64,000 nucleotides of DNA from a bacterium (GCA_044868695.1 JBIOWP010000053.1:1-64000); one strand, 5' to 3'. Positions 14,093 to 32,793 are shown, numbered from the stretch's first letter. Translations and numbers: made by a program. Notes: a model not told the origin generated them from the sequence alone.

Positions 14093-15619
14093 CTAGAATT
14101 CACGCCGCGCGGCCCACCAGACCGACCAGTCAGTCCGGGTTTGGCCGGTGACGTGAGAGGCGTTGGCGACCTCAGCCCACGTGACGCTGATCTCCTGCTG
14201 GAAGCCGGTGGGGCGCGGCATCCACGCGTAGTGCAGGCGCCACGCCTGGGTGGTTTCGATCACGCCTGAAAGATACAGATTCGACCAGGCGTCGGTGGGA
14301 TCGGTGAAGGTCTGACCCAGCTGCCCTTCGCCCTTTCGCACGAGATCGAATCCCACACGCAGTATCGCACCCGCGCCGAGATCCCGCGCCAGCTCCGCCG
14401 TCCACAGCTCGCAGTCCGGTGCGCACCAGTGTCCCACGGCCCGGCCGTTGCGGACGTAGTTGTTCATCCCACCGGCGGTGGCGTAGATCCAATTCGTTGC
14501 CCGGGTGTGTTCTACGCGGAGGGTCGTGAGCCCGTTCCCAAGGAGATTCCCCACGAATACACCTGCGGTCGCCCCGCCCAGGGTAGGCAGCGCGGACCCT
14601 CCGGTGGACAGATCATCTACGTAACCTTCCCCGTACAGAGTGATCCCGCGGCTCACACGCCAGTCGAAGTCGAAACCGACGTTGTAGTTGTCGGCCAGTC
14701 CCATCTGCTGCTGGCGGACCCACAGGCCCAGCCCGTAGGTCAGGAACGGCAGCGGGTTCAGCAGGTACGGCGAGTAGACGTCGCCGGATGCCACCATCAC
14801 TTCGCTGAGCCCCAACCGCAGGCCGTCGGCGGCCAGCCAGTCCACCCGCATGCCGTAGAGGGTACGCTGATCGGGGAGGCTCAGCGGCGCCGCCAGCTTG
14901 ACGAGACGCAGCCGTTCCCATTCAGCGGAGACCCGCAGCGTCTCAATCGTCCCCGCGTTGTCGGAGATGAGGAAGGCCCCCCGGGAGCCCGGTCCCCACC
15001 AGTGCGTCATGGTGCCGGTCTGGACCAGGATGTCCGGTCCGCCTGCGCTCACATACACGCGGTCGACCAGCGGCGGCGCAGGCTCTGGCAGCAGGGGCTG
15101 CCGGACGGTTGCCCCCATCGTGAGCCACGGCCCCAGGCCGAAGGTCCCATCGATCTCGAAACGGAGCGTGCTGCCCTGCGGTGGGAGGAACCACGGCGGT
15201 GCCCCCGACTCGACCCGCCACACCAGCGCACGATTCAATCGCACACCCCACCCGGTAATGGCCATGGCCGACGGCCCCTGGGGCGGTTCGACGACGCGGT
15301 ACCCAAGCAGCGCGAGTTCATCGGAGAACTCCAGGACGAGACGCTCGAGGATGTTCACCCCGGCCTGGTCCGCAGCATTTCTGTCCGCACCGATCCGGTC
15401 CAGTGACCGCGCGATGATGCGAGACACTTCCAGACGGGTCAGCGGTCTGGTCGAGACCGCCCACAGGGGGGCGAGGCCGGCCGCCGCAAGCCGGTAGAGG
15501 TCAACATAGACGGGGCTGTCAGAGGGGATGATCTCGAGGGAGTGCGCCGATGCGCCCGGTGCGATCAGCGTCAGCGCGAGACAGGCGGCGGCCAGCACCC
15601 GCGGCCATGGACACCGCAT
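14093..15619 (-). CDS. capsule assembly Wzi family outer-membrane protein
   Basis: Signal peptide; HWWGPGSRGAFLISDNA motif; LYGEGYVDD; C-terminal Phe. Confidence 0.75.
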   Translation of the reverse strand: MRCPWPRVLAAACLALTLIAPGASAHSLEIIPSDSPVYVDLYRLAAAGLAPLWAVSTRPLTRLEVSRIIARSLDRIGADRNAADQAGVNILERLVLEFSDELALLGYRVVEPPQGPSAMAITGWGVRLNRALVWRVESGAPPWFLPPQGSTLRFEIDGTFGLGPWLTMGATVRQPLLPEPAPPLVDRVYVSAGGPDILVQTGTMTHWWGPGSRGAFLISDNAGTIETLRVSAEWERLRLVKLAAPLSLPDQRTLYGMRVDWLAADGLRLGLSEVMVASGDVYSPYLLNPLPFLTYGLGLWVRQQQMGLADNYNVGFDFDWRVSRGITLYGEGYVDDLSTGGSALPTLGGATAGVFVGNLLGNGLTTLRVEHTRATNWIYATAGGMNNYVRNGRAVGHWCAPDCELWTAELARDLGAGAILRVGFDLVRKGEGQLGQTFTDPTDAWSNLYLSGVIETTQAWRLHYAWMPRPTGFQQEISVTWAEVANASHVTGQTRTDWSVWWAARREF

Positions 15620-15636
15620 CTACCGGTCGGGCCCGA

Positions 15637-16581
15637 TCATCGCAGGGCGATGACGAGATCCGCGGTCACACCCAGCAGCAGCGCGACGTTTTCTATCGCC
15701 ACAGGATTCTCCGGGACATAGAGCACGTCGCCGCGCTGCAACGAGACGTCGCGAGAGACATCACCCTCACGAACGACCTTCCAGAGATCGACCGGGATGA
15801 CTCTAATGGCGGCGCTCTCGCGGGCAACAACCACCGTGTTCAGCGAGACAGTAGACGTCGGGGGCTGCGTTCGTTCGCGCCTGATGATCGAGGACCGATT
15901 CAGCATGGCCCGCCGGGTTGGGCCCCCGGCCAGCGTCAGGGCCTGGAGCGCGGTGAGCGACCCGCGGACCGGCAACACTCCCGGCCGCTCCACCTGCCCC
16001 AGGACGTAGATGCGGGCCGTGGCATCTTCGGGAACCACGACGGAATCTCCCGACAACAGGGGCAGATTGAGCGAGAGGTCACCGCGCAAGAGGAGCCGTT
16101 CGAGGTCGATCAGCACCGGCGGAGCCTGCCCGCGCAACAGCCGGACTTCTCCGAGGCCGGCGTCGGGCGCCAGCCCCTCCGCGGCGGCGAGCGCGTCGAG
16201 GATCGTGGCGCCCGGTGCCAGCGCCACCACCCCGGGCCGCCGCACCTGTCCGAGCACGGACACCCGCACCCGGTGGAATGTGCGCACGATGACGGCGACT
16301 TGCGGCTCCCGGACGAATGTCGAAAACAGCTGAGTCAGCCGCTGGCGGAGCTGTTCTGGGGTCAAGCCGGCTGCCCGCACGTCCCCCACCAGGGGAAGGG
16401 AGATCACTCCGTCCGGCCGTATGATAACGATACGGGAAATCTCCGGATTGCGGAAGACAACGATCTCGATCTCATCTTCACTTGCCAGGACATACGGCTC
16501 CTGGGCGACGGCCGGGGCTAATGGGGGGGTCATGAACATTGAGACCAGGACCAGGAACGCCAGGGTTGATCGCCAGGGCAC
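15637..16581 (-). CDS. polysaccharide export protein (Poly_export + SLBB, Wza-like)
   Basis: IRPDGVISLPLVGDVRAAGLT, VSVLGQVRRPG, LQRGDVLYVP; GGAGGG RBS before GTG at 16581. Confidence 0.88.
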   Translation of the reverse strand: MPWRSTLAFLVLVSMFMTPPLAPAVAQEPYVLASEDEIEIVVFRNPEISRIVIIRPDGVISLPLVGDVRAAGLTPEQLRQRLTQLFSTFVREPQVAVIVRTFHRVRVSVLGQVRRPGVVALAPGATILDALAAAEGLAPDAGLGEVRLLRGQAPPVLIDLERLLLRGDLSLNLPLLSGDSVVVPEDATARIYVLGQVERPGVLPVRGSLTALQALTLAGGPTRRAMLNRSSIIRRERTQPPTSTVSLNTVVVARESAAIRVIPVDLWKVVREGDVSRDVSLQRGDVLYVPENPVAIENVALLLGVTADLVIALR

Positions 16582-16610
16582 GGGTGCACCCTCCGCTGCG
16601 TACTGGTCAG

Positions 16611-16679
16611 AGGATAGGGACCATCCTCCCAGGGGAGGAATCAGGTAGAATCCGGATGCGTATCGGGGAAAATCCCCTA
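16611..16679 (-). promoter_or_regulatory. bipartite dyad promoter, site 1 (wza-wzi)
   Basis: Minus strand: TAGGGGATTTTCCCC-gatacgca-TCCGGATTCTACCTGATT-N22-TATCCT. Confidence 0.8.
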
Positions 16680-16718
16680 CGCCCCTACCAATCCTGGCTC
16701 CAAAGAGCCGCATGGATA

Positions 16719-16759
16719 TGGGGTATTTTCCGGTATCCGATTCAGGTCTTTACCTGATT
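16719..16759 (+). promoter_or_regulatory. bipartite dyad promoter, site 2 (rsbRST operon)
   Basis: TGGGGTATTTTCCGG-tatccgat-TCAGGTCTTTACCTGATT; -10 not clear. Confidence 0.75.
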
Positions 16760-16817
16760 CGGTTGGACACCGGTCGGTGAAATGTTATTGAAGAATCGCC
16801 GCCGAAGGAGGCCTGCC

Positions 16818-17735
16818 ATGCCTGATGCTGAAACGAGCGCGGTTGTGACCCCCGTGCCGCGAGATGAGTCCACGACGGCGCTGCTGCGAGAGCTCGTGGC
16901 GCACCTTCGCCAGAGCCGGACCCAGCCCCGTGAGGAGTGGGCCCGGCGCATTACTGAAGCGAAACTGCTGACCGCGATGAGCCCGGAAGAGGTGTTCGCC
17001 GAAGCCACGGCCGTGTACGACAACTACCTGGAAGCGCTGGAGACGGGGTCCATCGAGGCGCTGGAGACATACGCGAGAAACCTGTCGGAGCGGATCATCC
17101 CGCGGGGCGTCGAGACGCACGAGGTCGTGGGTATCGTCCTCCTGCTCCGCGACGTGCTGGCGCGGTCGCTGTTCGCGAAGTACCGCCGGGACTTTGACCA
17201 GTTGAACAGCATCCTCGACGCGTACGAGCCGGCGGCCAACCGGATCGCCATTACCGTGTCCGTCGGCTTTGTCCAAGAGCGCGAGCGCGTCATCCGCCAG
17301 CAGCAGGAAGCGATACGGGAACTGTCCACGCCGGTCCTGCCCGTGCGGGAACGCCTGCTGATCCTTCCAATTATTGGTATCATCGATCCACAGCGCGCGC
17401 GCCAGCTGACCGAACAGCTGCTGCGCGGCATTCGCGTGAACCGCGCGAAGGTCGTCGTGATGGACATCACGGGCGTCCCGGCGATGGATGCCACGGTCGC
17501 GAACCACCTGGTGCAGACGGTGGAAGCGGCACGGCTGCTGGGGGCCATCGTCATCGTGACGGGCCTCGCCCCGGAGATCGCGCAGACCCTCGTCAACATC
17601 GGCGTGGATCTCAGCAAGATCATCACCGTCGGCGACATGCAGGGCGGGATTGAGGAAGCCGAGCGGCTGTTGGGCTACAAGGTTATGCCGGTCGCCGTCC
17701 TTCCGGCCAACGAGGCTCCGGAGGCCACCAGCTAG
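16818..17735 (+). CDS. rsbR: stressosome scaffold RsbR (helical N-domain + STAS)
   Basis: QQEAIRELSTPVLPV...LPIIGIID, MDITGVPAMD; GAAGGAGG RBS. Confidence 0.9.
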   Translation: MPDAETSAVVTPVPRDESTTALLRELVAHLRQSRTQPREEWARRITEAKLLTAMSPEEVFAEATAVYDNYLEALETGSIEALETYARNLSERIIPRGVETHEVVGIVLLLRDVLARSLFAKYRRDFDQLNSILDAYEPAANRIAITVSVGFVQERERVIRQQQEAIRELSTPVLPVRERLLILPIIGIIDPQRARQLTEQLLRGIRVNRAKVVVMDITGVPAMDATVANHLVQTVEAARLLGAIVIVTGLAPEIAQTLVNIGVDLSKIITVGDMQGGIEEAERLLGYKVMPVAVLPANEAPEATS

Positions 17736-17749
17736 CGGAGGTTGTCCAA

Positions 17750-18136
17750 ATGCCCGTCCCCATCCTCAAACAGCGTGACTATCTCATCGCGAGCATCCAG
17801 GCCGCGCTCACCGATGAGGACCTCAAGCAGCTGCGCGACGCGCTCGTGGCGCAGGTCGGACAATTCCGCTCCCGCGGGGTCATCGTGGACGTGACCGCCC
17901 TCGACGTCATGGATTCCTTTGCCGTCCGGACGCTGCGCGACCTCGCGCACATGACGCGGCTGCGGGGGGCGGAAACGGTCATCGTGGGCATTCAGCCCGA
18001 GGTGGCCTTCGCGATGACGCAGTTAGGCCTGAAGCTTGAAGGGGTGGCCGCCGCCTTGGATCTGGAAGAGGGGCTGGCATATCTTGACCGTCGGGGCAAG
18101 CGAGCCGGAGTTCATGGGCCTCGGCCCATGAACTGA
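17750..18136 (+). CDS. rsbS: stressosome STAS protein RsbS
   Basis: MPVPILK, DVTALDVMDSF, VGIQPEVA, ALDLEEGL. Confidence 0.92.
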   Translation: MPVPILKQRDYLIASIQAALTDEDLKQLRDALVAQVGQFRSRGVIVDVTALDVMDSFAVRTLRDLAHMTRLRGAETVIVGIQPEVAFAMTQLGLKLEGVAAALDLEEGLAYLDRRGKRAGVHGPRPMN

Positions 18137-18141
18137 TCCCC

Positions 18142-18600
18142 GTGATCTTACGTCCCAGCGCGGATGGCGCGACACCCGTGACCGACGAAGGGCGCTCGGA
18201 CACCTGGCAGGTGGTCGTCCCGATCACATCGGATCTTGACATCGTGGCCGCCCGGCAGCGCGGGCGGGTGCTGGCGCTTGACCTCGGCTACTCCGCGACG
18301 GAAGCCACGCTGGTCGCCACCGCCATCTCGGAACTGGCCCGGAACATCGTGTTGTACGCCAAACGGGGTCAGATCGCCCTGACGAGCGCCAACGACGGCA
18401 GCCGGCGAGGGATCGTCATCGTCGCGCGCGACGACGGACCGGGGATCGCGGACGTGTCCCGGGTCACCGTGGGCGGGTACTCCACCTCGGGCGGTCTGGG
18501 CCTCGGATTGTCCGGCGTCCGGCGGTTGATGGACGAATTTGAGATTTCCAGCCAGGTGGGCAAGGGGACAACGGTGACGGTCAAGAGCTGGAAACGCTGA
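18142..18600 (+). CDS. rsbT: RsbT Ser/Thr switch kinase (start uncertain)
   Basis: ATAISELARNIVLYA, DDGPGI, GYSTSGGLGLGLSGVRRLMDEF. Confidence 0.92.
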   Translation: MILRPSADGATPVTDEGRSDTWQVVVPITSDLDIVAARQRGRVLALDLGYSATEATLVATAISELARNIVLYAKRGQIALTSANDGSRRGIVIVARDDGPGIADVSRVTVGGYSTSGGLGLGLSGVRRLMDEFEISSQVGKGTTVTVKSWKR

Positions 18601-18607
18601 GGGCGCC

Positions 18608-19204
18608 GTGATTGAGTGGGGCGCCGCGACGTTCACCCTCCGGGGGCAGGTCGAATCCGGCGACCGCCATGTGGTGGCGCCGTTCGGCCCCGGGGTCCTT
18701 GTGGCCGCCATCGACGGTCTGGGGCATGGCGATGGGGCGGCCGAGGCCGCTTCGCGTGCCGCGAACGTCCTGGAGGATGTGTCCGCCGAGTCGGTGATCG
18801 CCCTGGTCCGCCGCTGCCACGAGTCGCTGCGGCGGACGCGCGGAGTGGTGATGAGCCTCGCCTCGTTCCACGCGCCCGACGACACGATGACGTGGTTGGG
18901 CGTGGGCAACGTCGAGGGGCGACTGCTGCGCGCCGCCCGGGACTCGAATCCCCCACTTGAAACGCTCCTCCTCCGGGGCGGGGTGGTGGGGAACCAGCTC
19001 CCGCCGTTGCAGGCTGCCCTGCTGTCCGTCGCCCCGGGGGATGTGCTGGTGCTGGCGACGGACGGGGTCGCCCTGCCGCCGGTTCCCGAGGTCGGCCTCC
19101 ACGACCGCCCGCAATCGATCGCGGAGAGGATTCTCGGCCGGCAGAAGAAAGAAACCGATGACGCGCTGGTGCTGGTGGTGCGGTGGGTGGGTCTGCCACG
19201 ATGA
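18608..19204 (+). CDS. SpoIIE/PP2C phosphatase (RsbX-like)
   Basis: ESGD, IDGLGHG, GVGNVEG, LATDG, DDALVLV. Confidence 0.85.
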   Translation: MIEWGAATFTLRGQVESGDRHVVAPFGPGVLVAAIDGLGHGDGAAEAASRAANVLEDVSAESVIALVRRCHESLRRTRGVVMSLASFHAPDDTMTWLGVGNVEGRLLRAARDSNPPLETLLLRGGVVGNQLPPLQAALLSVAPGDVLVLATDGVALPPVPEVGLHDRPQSIAERILGRQKKETDDALVLVVRWVGLPR

Positions 19205-20526
19205 CAGATGCGACGACCGAGCAGCTGACCAAATACGCCGCCGCGCTGAAGGAGTACCTCCGGGGAGGCGGCGAGCCCGCGCTGCAGCGGGCGTATGAAC
19301 TCGGACGCGCCGCGCTCGCCGAGGGGGTCGGCGTGCTGGAGATGGCAGCGCTGCACCATCGGGCGATGGTGCAACTGCTGCGGTCTGAAGAGAGCCTGCC
19401 GGGGATGGTCGCGGCCGCGGGGCAGTTCTTGGTCGAGAGTCTGTCGCCATTTGAGATGACACACCGGGGATACCGTGAAGCCAACGCGTCGCTTGAGGCC
19501 AGCGAGAAGCAGTACCGCGAGCTGTTCGAAAACGCCAACGATGCGGTGTTCACGGCTGACCTCACCGGTCAGTTCACGTCCATCAACCGGGCGGGGGAGC
19601 AGCTGACGGGGTACGAGCGCGGTGAGGTCACGTCCATGAACTTCGCGAGCGTCGTCGTGCCCGAGCACGTGCCGATCGCCCAGCGCATGATGGAGCGGAA
19701 ACTGCGTGGCGAGGTGGAACGGACCCGCTACGAAATCGAAATCAAGACCCGCGACGGACGGAGAGTTCCCGTCGAGGTGCACACCGCGCTGCTCCGCCAT
19801 GACGGGCAGGCGGTGGGGATCCACGGCATTGCGCGCGATATCACGGAGCGCAAGCAGGCTGAAGAGACGCTGCGGTGGTTGAACGAGCGGTTGGAGGACG
19901 AGGCGAAGCGGATCGCGCACGCGCTGCACGATGAAGCCGGCCAGCTGCTCAGTTCCGTGCACCTCGCCCTGGAGGAGGTCGCGCGCGATCTTCCTCAGGG
20001 CGCGCGGGCGCGGATGCGGGCCGTGAAAGAGCTGCTCGACCAGATCGAAGAGGAGCTGCGGCGGCTGTCCCACGAGCTCCGGCCGACGGTGCTCGACGAC
20101 CTCGGGCTGCTGCCGGCCCTGGAATTCCTCGCCGATCGCGTCGGCAGGCGCAGCGGGCTCACGATTACGGTGCAGGACAAGACCGAGCGGCGCCTGCCGC
20201 CGTCTGTCGAGACGGCCCTCTACCGCAGCGTGCAGGAGGCGTTCAACAATATCATGCGGCACGCGAAGGCGGCGCGGGTGAAGGTAGAGATCCGGCAGGA
20301 GGCAGGGAGCGTGCTCTGCTCGGTGCGGGACGACGGCATTGGGTTCAACACCGCCGTGGTGAAGGTGCGCGAAGGCGAGCGCGGACTCGGTCTGATGGGC
20401 ATCCGGGAACGCGCCGGCGCCCTGGGCGGGACGCTTGAGATCCGGTCGGCGCCGGGGAAGGGCACCGAGCTGTCTATCTCGATTCCTCTGGAGAGTGGAG
20501 ATGTCGCTGCGGATTCTGCTGGCTGA
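19201..20526 (+). CDS. RsbU-N-like / PAS / HisKA_3 histidine kinase
   Basis: N-terminal helical YAAALKEYL...ALQRAYELGR...FLVESLSPF; PAS (YRELFENANDA...ARDITERK); IAHALHDEAGQ; DDGIGF. Confidence 0.88.
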   Translation: MTDATTEQLTKYAAALKEYLRGGGEPALQRAYELGRAALAEGVGVLEMAALHHRAMVQLLRSEESLPGMVAAAGQFLVESLSPFEMTHRGYREANASLEASEKQYRELFENANDAVFTADLTGQFTSINRAGEQLTGYERGEVTSMNFASVVVPEHVPIAQRMMERKLRGEVERTRYEIEIKTRDGRRVPVEVHTALLRHDGQAVGIHGIARDITERKQAEETLRWLNERLEDEAKRIAHALHDEAGQLLSSVHLALEEVARDLPQGARARMRAVKELLDQIEEELRRLSHELRPTVLDDLGLLPALEFLADRVGRRSGLTITVQDKTERRLPPSVETALYRSVQEAFNNIMRHAKAARVKVEIRQEAGSVLCSVRDDGIGFNTAVVKVREGERGLGLMGIRERAGALGGTLEIRSAPGKGTELSISIPLESGDVAADSAG

Positions 20527-21133
20527 TGATCACGGAATCTTCCGCCAGGGCGTCAAGGCGCTGCTGGAGCGTGAAGGATTCCGCGTGGACGGCGAGGCCG
20601 GGGACGGCCACGCCGCGATTCAGCTCGCCGAGCAGCTGACTCCCGACGTCGCGGTCCTCGACCTCACCATGCCGCTGTTGAACGGCCTCGACGCGGCCAG
20701 GGAAATTGCGCGCCTGTCCCCGCGGACGCGGACGATCCTGCTGACGATGCATACCGAGGATCCGTATGTCGCCAAGGCGCTCGCGGCCGGCATCCGCGGG
20801 TACGTGCTGAAGAGCCAGGCGGCGGAGGACCTGGTGCAGGCCATCCGGGAGGTGTCCAAAGGCGCCGTGTATCTGAGTCCCGGCGTCTCGGAGGCCGTCG
20901 TCGAAGCGTACCTGGCGAGACGCGAGCTGCCCCGCGATCCGCTGACCTCGCGCGAGCGCCAGGTCCTGCAGCTCATCGCCGAGGGCAAGACCACCAAGGA
21001 GGTGGCCGGCCTCCTGGGCGTGAGCGTGAAGACGGCGGAGTCCCACCGGATGAGGATCATGTCCAAGCTCGATATCCACGAGACCGCCGGGCTGGTCCGC
21101 TACGCCATCCGTCAGGGACTGCTGCCGCCCTGA
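20501..21133 (+). CDS. NarL family response regulator 1
   Basis: LADDH, VLDLTMP, LTSRERQVLQLIAEGKTTKEVA...KLDIHETAGLVRYAIRQG. Confidence 0.93.
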   Translation: MSLRILLADDHGIFRQGVKALLEREGFRVDGEAGDGHAAIQLAEQLTPDVAVLDLTMPLLNGLDAAREIARLSPRTRTILLTMHTEDPYVAKALAAGIRGYVLKSQAAEDLVQAIREVSKGAVYLSPGVSEAVVEAYLARRELPRDPLTSRERQVLQLIAEGKTTKEVAGLLGVSVKTAESHRMRIMSKLDIHETAGLVRYAIRQGLLPP

Positions 21134-21153
21134 CCCGCCCGCAGAAAAGCGAA

Positions 21154-21222
21154 TCAGGGTTTTCCCTATGCGAGATTCAGGCGTTTACCCGATTGGACCC
21201 CCCAGCTAGATCCTCGTAGCGT
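21154..21222 (+). promoter_or_regulatory. bipartite dyad promoter, site 3 (regulator 2)
   Basis: TCAGGGTTTTCCCTA-tgcgagat-TCAGGCGTTTACCCGATT-N22-TAGCGT. Confidence 0.8.
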
Positions 21223-21279
21223 TACGTATAAGACTGGCACGACATCTGTGTGGACGTTGCGAAGGAGTGACGCCGTCCC

Positions 21280-21912
21280 GTGCCACTAAGAGTGGTCATC
21301 GCCGACGACCATGCGATCGTCCGTCAAGGCGTCCGGGGCCTGCTGGAGCGCGAGGGCTTCGATGTCGTCGCGGAAGCGGGCGACGGCAAAGAGGCGGTCC
21401 GGCTGACGCAGGAGCTCGGTCCCGACGTGGCGGTCCTCGACTTCGTCATGCCGGTGCAGGACGGCCTCGACACGGCCCAGGAGATCTCGCAAGTGTCACC
21501 GGGGACCCGGGCGATCCTGCTGACGATGCATGCTGAGGAACCCTACGTCGTCAGAGCCCTGCAGGCGGGGATCAGGGGTTACGTCCTCAAATCACAGACC
21601 GCGGTTGAGCTGGTGGGCGCCATTACTGAAGTCATGCGGGGCGGGACCTACTTCAGCCCGGGCGTATCCGGCGCCATCGTCCAGGCGTATCAGGCCCGCA
21701 ATGAACCTCCCTCCGATCACCTGACCCCGCGGGAACGTCAGGTGCTCCAGCTGGTTGCCGAGGGCAAGACTACCAAAGAGGTGGCTCAACTGCTGGGCAT
21801 CAGCGCCAAGACGGCCGACTCCCACCGCAGCCGCATCATGTCCAAGCTGGACATTCATGAGACGGCCGGGCTGGTCCGCTACGCCATCCGCCAGGGGCTC
21901 ATCAGGCTGTAA
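21280..21912 (+). CDS. NarL family response regulator 2 (paralogue of regulator 1)
   Basis: IADDH, VLDFVMP, C-terminal HTH nearly identical to 20501-21133. Confidence 0.93.
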   Translation: MPLRVVIADDHAIVRQGVRGLLEREGFDVVAEAGDGKEAVRLTQELGPDVAVLDFVMPVQDGLDTAQEISQVSPGTRAILLTMHAEEPYVVRALQAGIRGYVLKSQTAVELVGAITEVMRGGTYFSPGVSGAIVQAYQARNEPPSDHLTPRERQVLQLVAEGKTTKEVAQLLGISAKTADSHRSRIMSKLDIHETAGLVRYAIRQGLIRL

Positions 21913-21978
21913 AGAGAATCACCGATCCTCCTTAAGGCGTCCTCCCGATTGAATCCCCGCCTACGCGACCGTTACCAT
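21910..21978 (+). promoter_or_regulatory. bipartite dyad promoter, site 4 (ANTAR gene)
   Basis: TAAAGAGAATCACCG-atcctcct-TAAGGCGTCCTCCCGATT-N22-TACCAT. Confidence 0.65.
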
Positions 21979-21989
21979 AGTCTAAACGT

Positions 21990-22655
21990 ATGCAAACTCT
22001 GCGCGTGCTCATTGCCGAAGATAAGCGTCTTGTCGCGACGCGTCTGAGCTCGCAGCTCGAGAGTCTCGGGCATGAGGTCGCGGGCGTCGTACAAGATGGC
22101 CGCGACTTAGTGGAGGCCGCCTGGCGCCTGCTGCCGGACGTGATTATCGTCGGACTGCCGCTGCCCGTGCTGGACGGGATCGAGGCGTCGCGCGCTATTC
22201 TCACCAGACATGCGATTCCCATTATCGTGCTTGCCGGGTACACCTCCGCAGGTCTTGTCCGGCGGGCCCAGGAAGCCGGTGTGCTCACGTTCCTCGCCTG
22301 GCCGACTGACACCAGCGCGCTGGGGTCCGCGATTTATGTCGCACTGACCCGCTTCCAGGAGCTGCAGGTACTGTCCGAGCAGTCGGGCGACCTCCGGCAG
22401 GCGTTGCGGGCGCGCGCGACGGTGGAGCGGGCAAGGAAGATGTTGATGCGGCGCCTTGACCTCACGGAGGCCGATGCCTTCAGGTACATGCGCCGCCAAA
22501 GTCAGACCTCGGGCCTGCCGGTCCGAGACCTGGCAGCGAATATGCTGATGGTGGGAGAGTTTCTGTTTGGGAAGCTCGACACGGTCCGCCGTCTCGGAAC
22601 GATCCTCGACGTGCTCAGGCAGCGCGAGGCAGTCGGTCCACAGCGGGTCGCTTGA
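21990..22655 (+). CDS. receiver-ANTAR protein (AmiR/NasT-like)
   Basis: RVLIAED receiver; VERARKMLMRRLDLTEADAFRYMRRQS ANTAR helix pattern. Confidence 0.85.
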   Translation: MQTLRVLIAEDKRLVATRLSSQLESLGHEVAGVVQDGRDLVEAAWRLLPDVIIVGLPLPVLDGIEASRAILTRHAIPIIVLAGYTSAGLVRRAQEAGVLTFLAWPTDTSALGSAIYVALTRFQELQVLSEQSGDLRQALRARATVERARKMLMRRLDLTEADAFRYMRRQSQTSGLPVRDLAANMLMVGEFLFGKLDTVRRLGTILDVLRQREAVGPQRVA

Positions 22656-22681
22656 AGGTTCCCCCATAGTCCTTCCGCGCT

Positions 22682-22749
22682 CCTGGGTTTTCCCACCCGC
22701 CGGGTAGGGAAGCACCTGATTGGTCACGTCGGAGTCCAGCCCCTAGTGT
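22682..22749 (+). promoter_or_regulatory. bipartite dyad promoter, site 5
   Basis: CCTGGGTTTTCCCAC-ccgccgg-GTAGGGAAGCACCTGATT-N22-TAGTGT. Confidence 0.72.
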
Positions 22750-22876
22750 GGGTTCGGAGAGCACCCTCATAAGCTGAGGCCGTTACGGGTGAGCCCAGCC
22801 GGGCGTGTGAGTATGTGCGCGTTAAGGGTAGGGGCCGATCTCTGCGCGTGACGTCAAGGGTTCTGAGAACGATGCG

Positions 22877-23176
22877 ATGGGCACGCTGGTTATTTCGTTT
22901 GTCTCTGCGGTCACCGGGGCAGGGTACTCCGAGGGCGACGATGCAAAGATCACGATCGTCGTCCCGCGGTCGCACGCCTATCTTGCTGACCTGCTCGCCA
23001 GGGCCTTCGAAGGACGTGAGGACATCGAGGTCGTCGTGGACCGGCGGCGCGGCGACCGGCGGGCCCAGCAGCGGCCTGTCTCCGTCGATCGCCGGCGGAA
23101 AGATCGGCGCCGGCGCAAAGAGGAAGTCGTTGAGGTCGTAGTCGGCCGGCCGGGATGGCTGTCTGATACTTCGTAA
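22877..23176 (+). CDS. small protein with tandem DRR motifs
   Basis: EVVVDRRRGDRR...VDRRRKDRRR; lies downstream of promoter site 5; start uncertain. Confidence 0.65.
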   Translation: MGTLVISFVSAVTGAGYSEGDDAKITIVVPRSHAYLADLLARAFEGREDIEVVVDRRRGDRRAQQRPVSVDRRRKDRRRRKEEVVEVVVGRPGWLSDTS

Positions 23177-23231
23177 GGAGCGGAGCCGCCATCTGAACGC
23201 CTATGACGCGGTCAGAACCGCGCGTGGGTGG

Positions 23232-23299
23232 TAGGGGAACTTCCCGCCGGTGAGTCGGAGATTTACCTGATTGGCCGCGTCCGGGGAACACGCTACACC
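23232..23299 (+). promoter_or_regulatory. bipartite dyad promoter, site 6
   Basis: TAGGGGAACTTCCCG-ccggtgag-TCGGAGATTTACCTGATT-N21-TACACC. Confidence 0.75.
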
Positions 23300-23336
23300 C
23301 AAACCGGGTAGACGTCTGCATCGGTGGAGGAATGGC

Positions 23337-25295
23337 ATGCGACCGGCGATCCTGCGGAGTGCGGTGTGCGTCCTTTTCGTGAGCCTCCTGGCGGGTGGCC
23401 CGCCGGCCTCGGCGTGGGACGGAGTGTCTCATGCCGTCGTCAAGGTGTGGAATACCGCCGTTCCTATTCCCCCCTCCTTGAGCCTCGGGCTGACGCCGGG
23501 CGAGTCCGTCGAGGATCCCGCCGGCCTCACAGACCATGGCACAAGTTTCCCCACGATCGTGACCGTGTATGCCCGCAGCAGCCATCCGGGGGGTCTGTCG
23601 GGAGTGTCGTATTGGAATCCCGAGGGGAATGTCTTCGCGTGGTATGGGAAGACGTTTGGAGGGCTGCCCGCGGCGCAAATGCCACCGCCGCCGCCCAGCA
23701 GCGGGTTCCCAGGCGGGGTCGATATCAACCGGGGCGGCGGACCGGTCCTGGCAGGCGGACCATTCGGAACATCGTTTGGACCGGGTGATGTCTGGATCGG
23801 CGGAGCGCAGAATGAGCCGCTGATCGTGCAGATGGCCGGCTCGGACCCGCTGACCGGCGCCGGCAGGTTCCGATCCTACGGGACCAACAACCCGCTGCTG
23901 CCGCCGTCCGGCCAGGCCTTTGGGGTTCAGGTCGACGAAGCCACCGGGCACGTCTTCGTCGCCCAGACCTTCGAACGCCGGATCAGCCGGGTGAATCCTC
24001 CGACGGCGATCGTCACCATGTGGGACATGGGGACCTGCAACGGGTCGACGTGCGGCAGCCCCGTCTATGTGACGGTCGACACGTCGGGGCGCCCCTACGC
24101 GACGACGGTCGGATCGACGTTTGGGGACGGCGTCGTTCGCGTGAACCGCGGCGCAGACGGCGTGCTGGGGCTCAACCCCCTCACCGGCGTCTCTGACGAC
24201 ACCATCAGCCTGTGGGCGCTCCCCAGCCAGCCTGCATACCGCATCCCGCCGCTGTTCCTGACGAATCCGGAGGAGAACCCGAACGGGCTCATTACCGCGG
24301 ATGCGGATGGCAATGTGTGGATCTCCGAAAGCGGTGCCCACAAGGTGGCACGGCTGAACCCTGCCACGAACCAGATCTGCGAATACACCACGTCTGGAAT
24401 GCGCAACCCGCAGCAGATCACGACGACGGGGTCCGGCAGCTCGCTGCAGGTGTTCTTCACGGAGGGGGAGGGCAACTCGGTCAGTGTGCTCACGCAGGGC
24501 GAAGCCGACCTGGCGCCGTTCCCCGACCGGGCGTGCGTCAGTGTCACGCCCCTCACCTTTCCGACGCGTGTGGTCGACGTGACGACGCAGACCTTTGACG
24601 AACTGGTGCTGCCTCTGCGGACGGCGATCGTGCCGACGGTCCATCACGTGGCCTCGGTCGGCGGATCGGGCATCGCGCGGTTCTCGCCTATGCCGAACCC
24701 GCTGCTGTCCGTTGACGGGGACCCGATCGGGGATGCGGGCAACGGTTTCCCGTCGGGGATGACCGGTGTGTACGGGGTGAATCGGGTCGCGGGCGCGTAC
24801 CTCGATCTGCAGAATGGCAACAAGCACTTTCAGGTGGAAAGCCGCCTCATCACCGCCCCGCCGCCATCCCCGCCCGGCGGGCTGCCCGGCCGCATGACCG
24901 GTGGCGGGAGGCTCGCCACCGCGGACGGGACGAAGGTGACATACGGGCTCGTGCTGCGGTGCGCGGCGGATCAACAGGGCAAAGACGCGCTGCAGGTGAA
25001 CTGGAGCGAGGGCAACAGGTTCCATCTCACGCGGGTCAACGCGGCCTCGTGCAGTGACGATCCGTCCATCAGCCCCGATCCTCCCCCTGCGTCGTTCGAC
25101 ACTCACTCGGGCCGCGGGACAGGCCGCTACAATGGCGTAGACGGCGCCACGGCGGAGTGGACGTTCACCGACGCCGGAGAACCGGGGAACGACGATACCG
25201 TCCGGCTCGTCATCCGGAACGCCTCGGGCACGGTTGTGCTCGTGGTCTCGGGCCGGCTCACGAGAGGGAACAATCAGGCGCACGACGCCAGGTAG
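23337..25295 (+). CDS. secreted beta-propeller (Vgb/NHL-like) protein with a C-terminal post-COAP-like domain
   Basis: GGAGG RBS, signal peptide; PNGLITADADGNVWISESGAHKVARLNP; Pro linker; GRMTGGG...DAGEPG.DD...GNNQAH. Confidence 0.75.
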   Translation: MRPAILRSAVCVLFVSLLAGGPPASAWDGVSHAVVKVWNTAVPIPPSLSLGLTPGESVEDPAGLTDHGTSFPTIVTVYARSSHPGGLSGVSYWNPEGNVFAWYGKTFGGLPAAQMPPPPPSSGFPGGVDINRGGGPVLAGGPFGTSFGPGDVWIGGAQNEPLIVQMAGSDPLTGAGRFRSYGTNNPLLPPSGQAFGVQVDEATGHVFVAQTFERRISRVNPPTAIVTMWDMGTCNGSTCGSPVYVTVDTSGRPYATTVGSTFGDGVVRVNRGADGVLGLNPLTGVSDDTISLWALPSQPAYRIPPLFLTNPEENPNGLITADADGNVWISESGAHKVARLNPATNQICEYTTSGMRNPQQITTTGSGSSLQVFFTEGEGNSVSVLTQGEADLAPFPDRACVSVTPLTFPTRVVDVTTQTFDELVLPLRTAIVPTVHHVASVGGSGIARFSPMPNPLLSVDGDPIGDAGNGFPSGMTGVYGVNRVAGAYLDLQNGNKHFQVESRLITAPPPSPPGGLPGRMTGGGRLATADGTKVTYGLVLRCAADQQGKDALQVNWSEGNRFHLTRVNAASCSDDPSISPDPPPASFDTHSGRGTGRYNGVDGATAEWTFTDAGEPGNDDTVRLVIRNASGTVVLVVSGRLTRGNNQAHDAR

Positions 25296-25310
25296 CGGCA
25301 TGCGGCAATC

Positions 25311-25348
25311 CCGCAGGCGCCGGAGAGTGGGCGCCTGCGGTCTTTTTC
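25311..25348 (+). terminator. intrinsic terminator
   Basis: CCGCAGGCGCC-N8-GGCGCCTGCGG followed by TCTTTTTC. Confidence 0.8.
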
Positions 25349-25350
25349 TC

Positions 25351-25454
25351 TAGGGACATTCCCCGATGGCGTTTGATGACTTCTCCCTCGAACGTTCTCC
25401 AGCCGGTTTTCCAGGCTTCGCCTGATTGGTCTTCACGCTACGGTTAGGCACAGT
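25351..25454 (+). promoter_or_regulatory. dyad promoter, site 7 (variant spacing)
   Basis: Box A-like TAGGGACATTCCCCG at 25351-25365; box B TCCAGGCTTCGCCTGATT at 25410-25427; CACAGT 21 nt later. Confidence 0.6.
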
Positions 25455-25601
25455 GAGTGATGGAATGCGCAAGCGATCCGGACCCCCGAGGGGCCGGGAA
25501 GGAGGGATTGCGTCAACCAGTCACCGTAGGTCTCCGGTCCTTTGCATCGGGAGGTCGGACCGGCGCAGGGTCGTGTCGCACATGTCGAGAGGAGGAACGC
25601 A

Positions 25602-26246
25602 ATGAGCACGATGAGAGTCATGCACAGCCACGGCGCGCGCTGGGGTGTCGGTGCGCTGACCGTGGTCTTGACAATCTTCCTGGCGGTGCCCGCTCCTGTG
25701 AGCGCGCAGCTGCCGCTCCCACTGCCGGGAAGCGGAGGGGGGTCAGGGCCTCAGGCGACCGTAGTGCAGGCCGCCGTGTTCGGATCGACCGCCACGCTGG
25801 CCGATACCGGGACCCTCACGAGCGCCAGTGATCCTCTGGAAGCGTCGCTGGATGCAGGCAGCGCATTGGGAGTCGTGAACGGGGAAGTCCTGCACGCCGT
25901 CACGATCGGCTGGTCCGATCAGGTCGTCTCTGAAGCTTCGCTCGGGAACCTCACCATCGCGGGAGGCGGGCTTAGCATCATTGCGGACTTCGTGATGGCC
26001 CGGGCGCAGTCTGTCTCGGGATCCGGGAGCAGCGGTGGCTCCCTCATCGAGAACCTGTCGATCAACGGGGCGCCAGTCCAGCTCACCGGAGTGAATCAGA
26101 CGATCGCCCTGCTGGGGGGCCTCACCCTGGTCATCAACGAGGTGCAACAGTCGGGGAGCTCGGTCACGGCCAACGCCCTGCACCTCACGTCGCTGGATGG
26201 TCTCGTCGACATCGTGGTCGCGTCGGCGAGGGCGGGTGGGTTCTGA
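25602..26246 (+). CDS. secreted choice-of-anchor P-like protein
   Basis: Signal peptide; LSINGAPV....NQTIALLGGLTLVINE....VTANALHL...DIVVASARAG. Confidence 0.7.
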   Translation: MSTMRVMHSHGARWGVGALTVVLTIFLAVPAPVSAQLPLPLPGSGGGSGPQATVVQAAVFGSTATLADTGTLTSASDPLEASLDAGSALGVVNGEVLHAVTIGWSDQVVSEASLGNLTIAGGGLSIIADFVMARAQSVSGSGSSGGSLIENLSINGAPVQLTGVNQTIALLGGLTLVINEVQQSGSSVTANALHLTSLDGLVDIVVASARAGGF

Positions 26247-26269
26247 TGAGAGGACAGGAGGAGTGGACG

Positions 26270-26857
26270 ATGCGTAAGGTCATCTCATCTCTACTGGTGC
26301 TCGTCGCCGTTGTGGCGATGCAGGTGGTAGTTCCGACCCCCGCGCCTGCCCACGTGATCCCCAAACCATGTGATTTCACGACCGGCGGCGGATTTGTTTT
26401 CAACCCCTTCCCCAATGGAGCGAGGATCAACTTCGGCCTCGTCGGGGGGTGTAAGCACGGCTCGTTCTTCGGCCATGTGAACATCGTTGATCGGAGTTTC
26501 CCCCTTGGCCAGCTGCACGTGAGCAGCACGAGCATTGACGCGTACTTCGATCCGATAATTTCAGGATCGGGGTACCGTGATATCTGTGGCACGGCCAGGA
26601 CGAATCTCGTCGGCGATGTGAAGTTTCGCGTGCGAACGAAGGACAACGGAGAACCCGGAGGCGATGACCGCTTTGGGTTCAAACTGGCCAAGAATGGCGC
26701 AACGTACACTGTCAGCGTTCGGGAGCTGGGTCCCCCCGGCCGGACGGGCGGCGGTGGCAACATCCAGCTGCACAAGCCCAACCCGTCGACCACGGGACCG
26801 GACTTTGTAGACGAGATCGTTGCGTGCGGTGCGGATGACTCTGGATTGGGATTCTGA
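26270..26857 (+). CDS. secreted post-COAP-like domain protein
   Basis: Signal peptide; CDFTTGGGF..NFGLVGG..DNGEPGGDDRFG..GGGNIQLH. Confidence 0.7.
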   Translation: MRKVISSLLVLVAVVAMQVVVPTPAPAHVIPKPCDFTTGGGFVFNPFPNGARINFGLVGGCKHGSFFGHVNIVDRSFPLGQLHVSSTSIDAYFDPIISGSGYRDICGTARTNLVGDVKFRVRTKDNGEPGGDDRFGFKLAKNGATYTVSVRELGPPGRTGGGGNIQLHKPNPSTTGPDFVDEIVACGADDSGLGF

Positions 26858-26897
26858 CCGACTCGAGTCCCAAGGTTGTCGTCGCTCAACTATCGGT

Positions 26898-26939
26898 CCC
26901 CGGGGGGCCCGCATGGCGAGCCTCCCGGGGCAGTTTCTT
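26898..26939 (+). terminator. probable intrinsic terminator
   Basis: CCCCGGGGGGCCCGC-atg-GCGAGCCTCCCGGGG then CAGTTTCTT. Confidence 0.5.
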
Positions 26940-26963
26940 GGGTGGTTCAAATTCCAGCCGAGT

Positions 26964-27032
26964 TCAGGGGTTTTCCTCGCTGCACGTCCGGCGTCCACCT
27001 GATACCGGCGGAGGAGGGGAGCCGCCTATTCT
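26964..27032 (+). promoter_or_regulatory. bipartite dyad promoter, site 8
   Basis: TCAGGGGTTTTCCTC-gctgcacg-TCCGGCGTCCACCTGATA-N22-TATTCT. Confidence 0.75.
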
Positions 27033-27077
27033 CGGGCTAACGCGAAGGCGCTCCCCGAAGAGAGGGATGGCTGAACG

Positions 27078-28019
27078 ATGACGAGGCATAGCGGTCGACC
27101 GTGGAAACGATTTGGGCTACTCCTGATCAGCATGTTTCAAATCATCCCCGTGCTGCCGGGGCTCAACGTCGGCGCGACGAACGTCGCCTTCGCGCCCGGG
27201 GACGTGGTTCTCTCGTTCGAGAACGGGTCTGTACAGTGGCGGGCTCCCGATGGGGCCCTCAAGGGAGTGCTCGCCGGCACGGTGCCAGGCCCTGCAGAAG
27301 GCATGCGGTTCGATGCGGCCGGCAACCTGTACGTGACGCGCTGGTGCGCGCATCCCTGCTGGACCTCCGACACCGTTGAGAAGTTCAATACCAGTGGCGT
27401 CTGGCAAGGGACGTTCGGCAGCGGGTACAACTGCCGGCCCCACGCGCTCGCCTTCGACGCCGCCGGCAACGCGTACGTCGGCCAGGCCGACTGCACCGGT
27501 GACGTCTTGATGTTTTCGAGGGAGGGAAACCTTCAGGCCACTTATGCGGTCGCTCCCGAGAACAACGGCTCGTTCTGGGTCGACCTCGCCCCCGACGGCT
27601 GTACGCTCTTCTACACGTCGTGGGGTCCCAACGTAAAGCGGTTCAACGTGTGCACGAACAGGCAGCTTGCCGACTTCAACCGCGTCCCGCTGCCCGGCGG
27701 TGAGACCCATGGACTCCGCGTCCTGCCTGGTGGCGGCGTGTTGGTCAGCAGCGGCGCCGTGATCGCGCGCCTTGATGCCTCCGGGGTTCTCGTCCAGACC
27801 TACAGTGTGCCGACGGGTGAGCCCCAGTACTGGGCCGGGCTTGACCTGGTGGGTGACGGCACGTTTTGGGCCGCCAACTATTACGCGTCCATCTTCTTCA
27901 ACAACGCCAATGTGTACAGGTTTGACCTGACCACCGGAGCGATTCGGGGAAGCTTCAACACCGGGACCCCGGACCGTGATGTCGTCGATGTCCGCGTGAG
28001 CCGCGGGACGGGTCCGTAG
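27078..28019 (+). CDS. secreted beta-propeller protein (NHL/SMP-30-like)
   Basis: Signal-like N-terminus; repeated FDAAGNLYV / LAFDAAGNAYV blades. Confidence 0.75.
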   Translation: MTRHSGRPWKRFGLLLISMFQIIPVLPGLNVGATNVAFAPGDVVLSFENGSVQWRAPDGALKGVLAGTVPGPAEGMRFDAAGNLYVTRWCAHPCWTSDTVEKFNTSGVWQGTFGSGYNCRPHALAFDAAGNAYVGQADCTGDVLMFSREGNLQATYAVAPENNGSFWVDLAPDGCTLFYTSWGPNVKRFNVCTNRQLADFNRVPLPGGETHGLRVLPGGGVLVSSGAVIARLDASGVLVQTYSVPTGEPQYWAGLDLVGDGTFWAANYYASIFFNNANVYRFDLTTGAIRGSFNTGTPDRDVVDVRVSRGTGP

Positions 28020-28198: not shown

Positions 28199-28267
28199 TT
28201 GGGGTTTTTCCCCAATGGGCTTCCGGACTTCACCCTATTCCTGACCATGATGGATGGCTCTTATCTT
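28199..28267 (+). promoter_or_regulatory. bipartite dyad promoter, site 9 (EPS operon)
   Basis: TTGGGGTTTTTCCCC-aatgggct-TCCGGACTTCACCCTATT-N22-TATCTT. Confidence 0.78.
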
Positions 28268-28501
28268 CTAAGCCGTGACGCCGGAGCAGTCGGTGGGCTC
28301 CCCCCGCACGGCGATCGCGGGTTCAGCGAGTGGCCGGGCAAGTGAGGCGGACGGCGCGCGGGGTGGATCTCACGGCTGGCGCCCTTGGTCGTGACCGCGG
28401 ACCTCGTCCTCCAAGCGGCGCCGTCCGTCACTCCCGGCAGAAGGACCGGCCTGCGGCGCGGGCACGAGCCGCGCTCCGCGGGTCGCGACAACCAGGCGAC
28501 G

Positions 28502-29119
28502 ATGACGCACATGGGTAGGCTTGGGTCACCAACTCAAACCGAAGGGGGCGAAGCCTTGCCGCGCGTCGGGATGCTCGCCACGGCGGACGTCGACACGCCG
28601 CGCGTCCCCACGGTAGGGGCGCCGCCCTGGTACGCATTGTGGACGCGCAGCCACTGCGAGCGGCTGGTCTTCGACCATCTCGTCGCCAAGGGGTTCGACG
28701 CGTTCCTGCCGGTGGTCGACATCTGGTCGGTTCGCGCCGGCGTCCGCCGCCGCATCCAGATGCCCATGTTTCCCGGCTACCTCTTTCTCCGCCACGCGAT
28801 GGACAAGTACAGCTACATCGAGGTCCGGAAAGCCCGTGGCCTCGTGACTGTGCTGGGGGAGAGCTGGGATCGCCTCGCCCCGGTGCCCGACGATGAGGTC
28901 GAGGCGATTCAGGCCGTCGTGCGCTCACAGATGCCCGTGCTGCCCTACGCGTATCTGCGCGACGGACAGCGGGTCCGTATTGTCCGCGGGCCGCTCGCCG
29001 ATGTTGAGGGGTTCCTCGTGCGGCAGAAGCCGAACGCAGGACTCCTCGTCCTCTCCGTCCAGTTGCTCCAGCGAAGCGTCGCCGTCGAGGTGGACTGCAC
29101 ATGGGTAGTCCCGGCGTAG
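28502..29119 (+). CDS. NusG paralogue antiterminator (RfaH/UpxY-like); start uncertain
   Basis: WYALWTRSHCE, PMFPGYLF, GQRVRIVRGPLADVEG (KOW). Confidence 0.9.
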   Translation: MTHMGRLGSPTQTEGGEALPRVGMLATADVDTPRVPTVGAPPWYALWTRSHCERLVFDHLVAKGFDAFLPVVDIWSVRAGVRRRIQMPMFPGYLFLRHAMDKYSYIEVRKARGLVTVLGESWDRLAPVPDDEVEAIQAVVRSQMPVLPYAYLRDGQRVRIVRGPLADVEGFLVRQKPNAGLLVLSVQLLQRSVAVEVDCTWVVPA

Positions 29120-30648: not shown

Positions 30649-30652
30649 TCTG

Positions 30653-31447: not shown

Positions 31448-31472
31448 GTCGATCGCAGGGAAGAGGGATAAG

Positions 31473-32150: not shown

Positions 32151-32159
32151 CAGACGCGT

Positions 32160-32783: not shown

Positions 32784-32793
32784 GCCGGATCGC

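Follow-up and report, generated by a model that had tools for sequence, protein, structure and literature searches.

How does a stressosome pass on its signal when its genes are followed by a histidine kinase instead of the sigma-B cascade? This question is raised by a gene cassette at positions 16818-21912 of a 64,000-nt stretch of DNA (GCA_044868695.1 JBIOWP010000053.1:1-64000), which is referred to below as the window and comes from a bacterium of a soil lineage. For stressosomes outside Firmicutes, the route through kinases that carry an RsbU_N domain has so far been a published proposal. Our analysis assigned the N-terminal domain (N-domain) of the cassette kinase to RsbU_N, and we consider it rather probable that RsbT released from the stressosome docks on this domain and switches phosphotransfer to the response regulators. 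The genes of the region are as follows:

16818-17735, + strand: rsbR, with an N-terminal sensor-globin-fold domain and a C-terminal STAS domain
17750-18136, + strand: rsbS, a single STAS domain with a phosphorylatable Ser (DVMDSF)
18142-18600, + strand: rsbT, a GHKL Ser/Thr switch kinase
18608-19204, + strand: RsbX-like PP2C phosphatase, small and single-domain (198 aa, Pfam SpoIIE)
19201-20526, + strand: soluble histidine kinase of 441 aa with RsbU_N, PAS, HisKA_3, and HATPase_c
20501-21133, + strand: response regulator 1, receiver (REC) plus GerE/LuxR helix-turn-helix (HTH), NarL class
21280-21912, + strand: response regulator 2, REC plus GerE, a paralogue of regulator 1
21990-22655, + strand: REC-ANTAR response regulator of the RNA-binding antiterminator type (Pfam ANTAR, E 3.1e-16; Response_reg, E 8.1e-15)

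The rsbR ATG at 16818 is preceded by the ribosome-binding site GAAGGAGG, and an alternative rsbT start (GTG at 18178) yields the 140-aa form found in the database. Only 14 nt separate rsbR from rsbS, 5 nt rsbS from rsbT, and 7 nt rsbT from the PP2C gene, the stop codon of which overlaps the kinase ATG (19201) as ATGA. Therefore, the first-pass annotation was correct in describing rsbR-rsbS-rsbT-PP2C as translationally coupled to a soluble kinase; no membrane-type segment was present in the latter (highest Kyte-Doolittle 19-residue mean 1.06). The ATG of regulator 1 lies at 20501, 26 nt inside the kinase gene, and a gap of 146 nt separates the two NarL-type regulators, which are 70% identical.

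The domains of the kinase were delimited with Pfam profiles:

19231-19458, + strand: RsbU_N
about 19510-19860, + strand: PAS
about 19906-20094, + strand: HisKA_3
about 20209-20493, + strand: HATPase_c

The match to RsbU_N (PF08673) had an E-value of 3.1e-11 and a score of 43.7 bits, compared with the Pfam cut-off of 25.5, and covered profile positions 2-74 of 75; kinase residues 1-100 alone scored 47.5 bits. The E-values of the other three domains were 7.4e-17 (PAS), 4.3e-9 (HisKA_3), and 4e-16 (HATPase_c), in line with the order PAS-HisKA_3-HATPase given earlier for the part that follows the N-domain. A single-sequence phmmer search of the PDB with the N-domain returned nothing at E<=10. A profile built from 41 kinase N-domains (alignment A3) matched 2j70, 2j6z, 1w53, and 2j6y, which are the solved N-domain of B. 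subtilis RsbU, with E-values from 2.7e-6 to 3.9e-5, and no other entry below E 0.4. Thus, the resemblance to the Bacillus RsbU N-domain that had been noticed earlier held in the hidden Markov model search as well as in the profile search, and the domain is, judged from its sequence, a true RsbU_N. The family also has an invariant motif of its own, E..LSPFEMTHR, at the end of the domain.

The features of a NarL-class two-component system were found in full: a HisKA_3 dimerization and phosphotransfer domain (DHp) with the H-box AHALHDEAGQ, an HATPase_c domain with the N, G1, and G2 boxes, and an adjoining REC-GerE regulator. Regulators 1 and 2 scored 185.4 and 183.9 bits with NF052445, under its equivalog cut-off of 300, and because of these scores they are assigned to the NarL class and not to the named NF052445 system. 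Another soluble kinase of the HisKA_3 type, with GAF as its input domain, is encoded at 1341-2636 (+), 15 kb upstream of the cassette.

Which other proteins could receive RsbT was assessed by profile searches of the source genome (2.59 Mb, 162 contigs, 95% complete). One RsbU_N match was obtained, namely the cassette kinase, and one PP2C (SpoIIE) match, namely the RsbX-like gene; the three STAS matches were RsbR, RsbS, and a small RsbV-like gene on another contig. Neither an RsbU nor a linked partner switch is present in this 95%-complete genome, and the cassette kinase is its only protein with a known RsbT docking domain. On the window's contig there was no STAS domain beyond RsbR and RsbS, no RsbW-type gene, and HATPase_c_2 was matched only by RsbT and two histidine kinases, so that the absence of rsbV and rsbW from the window, as annotated at first, was borne out. 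The linked RsbU, RsbV, RsbW, and sigB of the Bacillus cascade were not found in the genome; RsbU_N lies on the kinase. Since there is a single RsbU_N and the sole PP2C lacks this domain, the most economical reading would be that RsbT acts on the kinase.

A classical partner switch might still be assembled from distant genes, with the operon PP2C dephosphorylating an RsbV-like protein and so freeing a sigma factor from an RsbW-like kinase. Candidates for all three partners do occur in the genome: the RsbV-like STAS gene (C115:28609-29214, - strand), an RsbW-like HATPase_c_2 gene (C91:3045-3791, - strand, E 1.4e-24), and a SigB/F/G-like sigma factor (C115:56384-57175, + strand), which scored 211.6 bits, below the cut-off of 234.35 that no SigB/F/G match in the genome reached. 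Given the RsbV-like and RsbW-like genes, the initial wording "instead of a general stress response" went too far. That the genome has a single PP2C also speaks for such a switch, but with 95% completeness another one may be unassembled. Moreover, the three candidates are scattered and unlinked to the locus, the PP2C carries neither RsbU_N nor any other docking domain, and its gene directly follows rsbT, the position occupied by RsbX in the conserved RSTX module (PMC9237108). We therefore regard a remote partner switch as very improbable.

The proteins upstream of the kinase had the features of an RSTX module: an RsbR with sensor and STAS domains, an RsbS with the serine, an RsbT of the GHKL type after rsbS, and a PP2C directly after rsbT. 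The STAS domain of RsbR was matched by Pfam at E 2.5e-13, and solved RsbR chains aligned with residues 136-287, its STAS half, at E 1.9e-36 in the PDB search. RsbS (Pfam STAS, E 4.2e-14) aligned end to end with the solved Listeria RsbS 6qcm_A (E 8.4e-25), including Ser56; the phosphorylatable serine of DVMDSF corresponds to that of DFIDSF, the position mutated to Ala in 9o4r_a. RsbT was matched by HATPase_c and HATPase_c_2 (the latter at E 7.9e-10) and has 7902 relatives at E<=1e-10, some of them named "serine/threonine-protein kinase RsbT" by their sources; N56, D85, G87, and G89 of the N-box and G-box are invariant, and no solved RsbT chain was matched in the PDB search with RsbT; in the B. 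subtilis protein, the contact residues are R19, R23, and N24. The PP2C (Pfam SpoIIE, E 1.5e-9) has no other domain in its 198 aa.

The predicted model of the RsbR N-domain (pLDDT, the predicted local distance difference test, 89.1) has the sensor-globin fold. Its fold matches were AfGcHK, the non-haem globins pXO1-118/pXO2-61, and the N-domains of Moorella and Bacillus RsbR (e.g., 2bnl and 3zta), with template-modeling (TM) scores of 0.6-0.7, a Foldseek probability of about 1, and E-values of 0.02-0.2. Assignment to Pfam RsbRD_N was rejected (E 0.022, 15.9 bits, cut-off 24.3). In alignment A4 of this domain (window 16869-17336), the mean column identity is 77%, far above the conservation of the kinase N-domain, and the sole invariant histidine (H12 in the alignment) belongs to the first helix. 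Because there is no invariant histidine at the haem-ligand position, the RsbR sensor globin is likely to lack haem.

The distribution of the module was surveyed in two collections. In a protein collection, the search with kinase residues 1-100 found 725 proteins at E<=0.001 among 2001 candidates. All of the best 120 of these carry histidine-kinase domains, with or without PAS, and 119 carry PF08673 in the precomputed annotation; no fusion of RsbU_N to a PP2C or a cyclase occurred among them. In a species-genome collection, about 1000 stored stretches matched, of which 599 were scanned, 557 encoded a relative, and 79 loci were kept; loci, genomes, and contigs are cited here by L, G, and C numbers. 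By their record titles, from which the phyla of the loci below are taken, these loci belong to Rokubacteria/Methylomirabilota, Acidobacteriota, Nitrospirota, Gemmatimonadales, Binatia, Gamma-, Beta-, and Deltaproteobacteria, and others; those nearest to the window bear the titles "Bacillati bacterium ANGP1" and "Armatimonadetes bacterium 13_1_40CM_64_14."

Synteny was determined by tblastn of the window proteins against the 79 loci. RsbR, RsbS, RsbT, and PP2C all lay within 3.5 kb upstream of the kinase in 55/79 loci, and at least one of the four in 69/79, many of the remaining loci being cut by contig ends; a NarL-type regulator followed the kinase directly in 77/79. Owing to these upstream sets and downstream regulators, the six-gene cassette is a conserved unit of many phyla. 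The wiring of a stressosome to an RsbU_N kinase is very common. The ANTAR regulator is kept downstream in L028-L031, L048, and L053. Within the source organism's own phylum (94 species genomes, including the unpublished G033, which had no match), RsbU_N was found in 9 genomes and RsbT in 10, with both in 8; in G031, which has RsbU_N without RsbT, the operon is interrupted by a contig end. Full-length orthologues of the kinase were found in 3/40 relatives. Among 56 loci with titles from different phyla, the identity of the RsbR N-domain is about 80%, and this value, together with the patchy spread, suggests that the cassette has moved horizontally.

Several other arrangements were seen during the survey. 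RsbT orthologues that are 67% identical occur at G001:C107:31607-32026 and G017:C162:33496-33873 in genomes with no RsbU_N match, and the putative stressosomes of these two must have a different output; the RsbT orthologue of G017 is closely preceded by a large kinase gene. In each of three related genomes of one genus (G082, G083, and G086), 5-6 RsbT paralogues are encoded, a number that suggests more than one stressosome module, in fact several, in a single genome. A variant stressosome at 4285-8275 of L024 (G006:C327) consists of a small STAS protein, an RsbR-like gene, an RsbT (46% identical), and a PP2C; next come a protein of 357 aa, whose RsbU_N match (59 bits) is the strongest in the phylum, and a receiver protein. 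In L034, exopolysaccharide (EPS) genes occupy the region upstream of the RsbU_N kinase.

From these data the following sequence of events may be proposed. The sensor globin of RsbR would respond to a signal within the stressosome, upon which RsbT would phosphorylate RsbS and RsbR and leave the complex. Freed RsbT would then attach to the RsbU_N dimer and the helix leading out of it, as it does on RsbU in Bacillus. Relayed by the PAS domain, this binding might alter the balance between kinase and phosphatase activity in the DHp-CA core; PAS itself may contribute a second input. Finally, the PP2C would reset RsbS and RsbR.

A number of observations weigh against docking of RsbT on the kinase. 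Four residues of B. subtilis RsbU are implicated in RsbT binding (PMC12143880), and their counterparts in the kinase are:

RsbU E24, kinase E25: kept, invariant in the family
RsbU I74, kinase V78: conservative
RsbU Y28, kinase Q29: not kept
RsbU I78, kinase S82: not kept

Thus, only two of the four contacts are retained. The PAS domain is interposed between RsbU_N and DHp, and therefore the linker mechanism of Bacillus cannot apply unchanged. In addition, Foldseek placed 1w53 only at rank 17 (E 1.7, TM 0.65) for the AlphaFold model of the N-domain, a three-helix monomer with a pLDDT of 92.2; this match is weak, which is not surprising for a helical domain of small size, given that the solved RsbU N-domain crystallized as a swapped dimer. 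Two RsbU_N kinases, in L034 and L087, lack homologues of RsbR, RsbS, RsbT, or PP2C in the 10 kb or so that precede them, and Vibrio RsbT showed no detectable interaction with its downstream kinase, which lacks RsbU_N (PMC9237108). Apart from the fold rank, these points might mean that RsbU_N is a dimerization module only, that PAS governs the kinase, and that RsbT acts inside the stressosome or on another target, in which case the gene linkage would reflect co-expression and not contact between the proteins. We consider this unlikely. The domain sits on kinases throughout the best 120 relatives, mostly right after rsbT and rsbX; the kinases without PAS have no other input domain through which they could be governed; the motif E..LSPFEMTHR offers the N-domain an invariant surface of its own; and in Moorella, RsbU_N mediates the control of a cyclase by RsbT, as cited in PMC12143880. 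Docking of RsbT on the kinase thus remains the reading that we prefer.

A further connection between sensor and kinase was provided by natural fusions, in which the RsbR N-domain (68-71% identical) is joined in one frame to a HisKA_3-HATPase core (53-56% identical):

L069:128-1363, + strand: globin::kinase fusion, ANGP1
L079:9530-10663, + strand: globin::kinase fusion, Betaproteobacteria
L067:3331-4428, + strand: globin::kinase fusion, Acidobacteriota

Each of them is followed by a regulator that is 65-70% identical to regulator 1. As predicted proteins, the fusions link the RsbR sensor with the kinase and its regulator by evidence other than gene order. One record set supplied both L069 and L028, the latter a locus with a stressosome.

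What, then, would the regulators control? EPS genes flank the cassette on both sides and make up an XrtA/PEP-CTERM-like locus around it:

14093-16713, - strand: wza-like (Poly_export/SLBB) and wzi-like genes; TIGR03027 XrtA/PEP-CTERM export protein, 173.7 bits, just under the cut-off of 180
28385-34152, + strand: head of an EPS operon; TIGR03007 XrtA chain-length determinant, 280.2 bits, above the cut-off of 278.85

The true start of wza lies below 16639. The operon head encodes NusG/UpxY-like and Wzz-type proteins, a tyrosine autokinase, a priming sugar transferase, a SigB/F/G-like sigma factor, and a Wzy-type ligase, and many modification enzymes follow up to the end of the window. A bipartite motif, GG(G/A)TTTTCC-N20/21-CCYGATT, precedes wza, rsbR, regulator 2, and the NusG-like gene and follows the ANTAR gene; its copies were located by a genome-wide pattern scan:

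16639-16675, - strand: facing wza-wzi (GGGGATTTTCCCC ... TACCTGATT), back to back with the rsbR copy in the same intergenic region
16723-16759, + strand: upstream of rsbR, with an imperfect inverted repeat, GATTCAGG-N6-CCTGATTC (16739-16760)
21158-21194, + strand: upstream of regulator 2, GGTTTTCCC-N21-CCCGATT, with GATTCAGG...CCCGATTG
22686-22721, + strand: after the ANTAR gene, GGTTTTCCC-N20-CCTGATT
28203-28239, + strand: upstream of the NusG/UpxY-like head of the EPS operon

Genome-wide, the degenerate motif has six distinct matches, five of which fall at 16.6-28.2 kb of the window's contig; from the half-site counts, chance alone would place about 0.75 there. The copies before rsbR and before the NusG-like gene are kept in relatives from two families; the pre-NusG position is shared by L022, L023, and L025, and also by L028, L029, L030, and L053. 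Across the 79 loci, a similar pattern was matched 26 times, always on the cassette strand: 12 matches lie just upstream of rsbR, five at the NusG-like gene, two at regulators, and seven elsewhere. The rsbR copies carry the palindrome TCAGGT-N4-ACCTGA, which is a perfect 18-mer in L044, and the palindrome was found upstream of rsbR in 15/52 loci, compared with 5.6% of 7,924 background windows.

For the survey of EPS genes, at least two of seven EPS markers were required at loci flanked by 6 kb or more on each side. Loci were divided into PAS-type and PAS-less according to how far the H-box lies from the N-domain motif. This distance replaced a split by coverage of high-scoring segment pairs (HSPs), which was too loose (12/22 vs. 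1/21); the length of the open reading frame was likewise rejected as a classifier, since frames taken from the first start are inflated in high-GC DNA. The outcome was as follows:

PAS-type loci with EPS markers: 12/18
PAS-less loci with EPS markers: 1/22
Unclassified loci (seven, two of them with long flanks) with EPS markers: 0/2

The EPS-positive loci come from three phyla (ANGP1-like, Rokubacteria/Methylomirabilota, and Acidobacteriota), related loci not being independent of one another. The association with EPS genes is thus real and is confined to the PAS-bearing sub-clade: the output proposed initially, EPS plus secreted matrix proteins, retains the backing of a conserved association and a shared motif in this sub-clade, and does not extend to the PAS-less loci. 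EPS is a plausible output of the cassette: the surrounding genes form an EPS locus, the two have a promoter motif in common, and the association has been kept in three phyla.

Under such an output, the phosphorylated NarL-type regulators would bind the TCAGGT-N4-ACCTGA box and autoregulate the cassette, and they would probably activate wza-wzi together with the NusG-like/EPS operon and the genes of the secreted choice-of-anchor-P proteins, with the ANTAR regulator possibly acting on leader RNAs. Four probably secreted proteins are encoded between the cassette and the EPS operon at 23271-28019 (+), each preceded by a weaker copy of the motif: a beta-propeller-like protein of 674 aa that ends in post-COAP-1, one choice-of-anchor-P and one post-COAP-1 protein, and a 313-aa protein without a family. 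An Rfam scan of 12000-34000 at E<=1 gave one chance-level small RNA match and no ANTAR-target or riboswitch family. Scanning 16500-23400 for promoters and terminators gave no promoter-like sites and four terminator-like ones, all on the minus strand, compared with 2.5 expected. The window DNA was matched in eight DNA sequencing runs of soil metagenomes from four studies, two of which may be its source, with no RNA run among the matches.

Two findings count against EPS as the output. There are no EPS genes at 6/18 PAS-type and 21/22 PAS-less loci with long flanks, and only 13/43 loci overall have them in the looser HSP-based count; the EPS operon also contains a possible alternative reader of the motif, a short sigma factor of 207 aa (32160-32783, + strand) between the priming transferase and Wzy genes. 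Its regions 2 and 4 resemble SigB/F/G (TIGR02980, E 6.4e-29, in two stretches and far below the cut-off). The cassette might, then, regulate itself or control unlinked genes while the motif is read by another factor, for example this sigma factor, and the stressosome genes would be mere members of its regulon. Such an arrangement would suit the form of the motif, which is directional and bipartite with a fixed spacing of 20-21 nt, resembling a sigma-factor promoter; the full palindrome, moreover, is found only in the rsbR and regulator-2 copies of the window motif, and the sigma-factor gene is conserved inside the EPS operon of L030. However, L030 was the only one of the 79 loci with a homologue of the sigma factor in its flanks (tblastn, E<=1e-6), and the motif recurs before rsbR in Rokubacteria, Gemmatimonadales, and Binatia loci whose flanks gave none, whereas a regulator is always present in loci with the motif before rsbR. 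An output other than EPS therefore appears rather unlikely to us. The NarL-type regulators are favored as the putative readers of the motif because an 18-bp palindrome suits a dimeric HTH of the LuxR type and because they are the only DNA-binding protein that travels with the cassette.

A wider proposal follows, which we put forward tentatively and which could well prove wrong. The six-gene cassette, spread horizontally, may be the dedicated on-switch of an XrtA/PEP-CTERM-like locus for EPS and matrix proteins in several soil phyla, acting via a GGGATTTCCC-N-TCAGGT-N4-ACCTGAT promoter. Because natural globin::kinase fusions exist, the stressosome would be an optional integrator between a conserved sensor and the kinase. 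With these fusions, and with EPS genes linked in soil phyla (ANGP1/CSP1-3-like, Rokubacteria, and Acidobacteriota), a capsule or biofilm matrix suggests itself as the physiological output. For experimental work, the locus and the approximately 1000 like it make up a compact soluble test set of RsbT, a 100-residue docking domain, a kinase, three candidate regulators, and a candidate DNA box.

The original survey of rsbRSTX modules with two-component systems downstream is reportedly that of Pané-Farré in 2005. Heinz 2022 (PMC9237108) describes the rsbRSTX module as widely conserved and distinguishes eleven types of module behind it, two-component systems among them; RsbU_N occurs on the downstream proteins of some alpha-, beta-, and gamma-Proteobacteria, "strongly suggesting" stressosome-dependent signaling. 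Baral 2025 (eLife; PMC12143880) states that B. subtilis RsbT binds RsbU_N plus the linker, and it presents an AlphaFold model of an RsbU_N kinase for which activation by RsbT via N-domain and linker is proposed. Thus, the wiring of the stressosome to an RsbU_N kinase is already in print as an observation and a hypothesis.

A close parallel in gene order is the Vibrio vulnificus stressosome (PMC9237108, PMC4976288), in which RsbR-RsbS-RsbT-RsbX are followed by a kinase and a regulator, the RsbR sensor is of the globin type, and, as in the window, no sigB, rsbU, rsbV, or rsbW is linked. Its kinase D1 lacks RsbU_N and its RsbR globin binds haem, whereas the kinase of the window has RsbU_N and PAS and belongs to the HisKA_3/NarL class, the host lies outside Proteobacteria, and an EPS cluster surrounds the genes. 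The gammaproteobacterial "NreB" (Fig. 5E of PMC12143880) is likewise a histidine kinase with an RsbU N-domain in an operon with rsbT and stressosome genes; it is a structure prediction with a hypothesis. What the window has in addition is a tandem pair of paralogous regulators, a regulator of the ANTAR type, an EPS setting, and the promoter motif.

In Moorella thermoacetica, MtR-MtS-MtT-MtX together with MtG (RsbU_N-GAF-GGDEF) offers a precedent for RsbT acting via RsbU_N on an enzyme that is not a phosphatase (Quin 2012, as cited in PMC12143880), and the Moorella structures 3zta, 2vy9, and 3ztb were among the PDB and fold matches of the window proteins. The output there is a diguanylate cyclase, in contrast to the histidine kinase of the window with its DNA- and RNA-binding regulators. 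With the sigmaB pathway of Bacillus subtilis and Listeria the window shares RsbR, RsbS with its phospho-serine, RsbT, an RsbX-type phosphatase, and the RsbU_N docking domain; unlike that pathway, it has no RsbU phosphatase and no linked RsbV, RsbW, or sigmaB, and its predicted output is a two-component phosphorelay.

AfGcHK (5ohe, 5ohf) was the best fold match of the RsbR N-domain (TM 0.63-0.68), and its architecture parallels the RsbR-globin::HisKA_3 fusions. It binds haem and has no stressosome, whereas the window puts STAS, RsbS, RsbT, and RsbU_N between globin and kinase. A literature search found no paper on a stressosome locus linked to exopolysaccharide. For a specialist, a single locus of this kind adds little surprise, and the added value is modest; compared with the published systems, what is new here is the EPS link in the PAS-bearing sub-clade, the bipartite motif with its palindrome, and the globin::kinase fusions.

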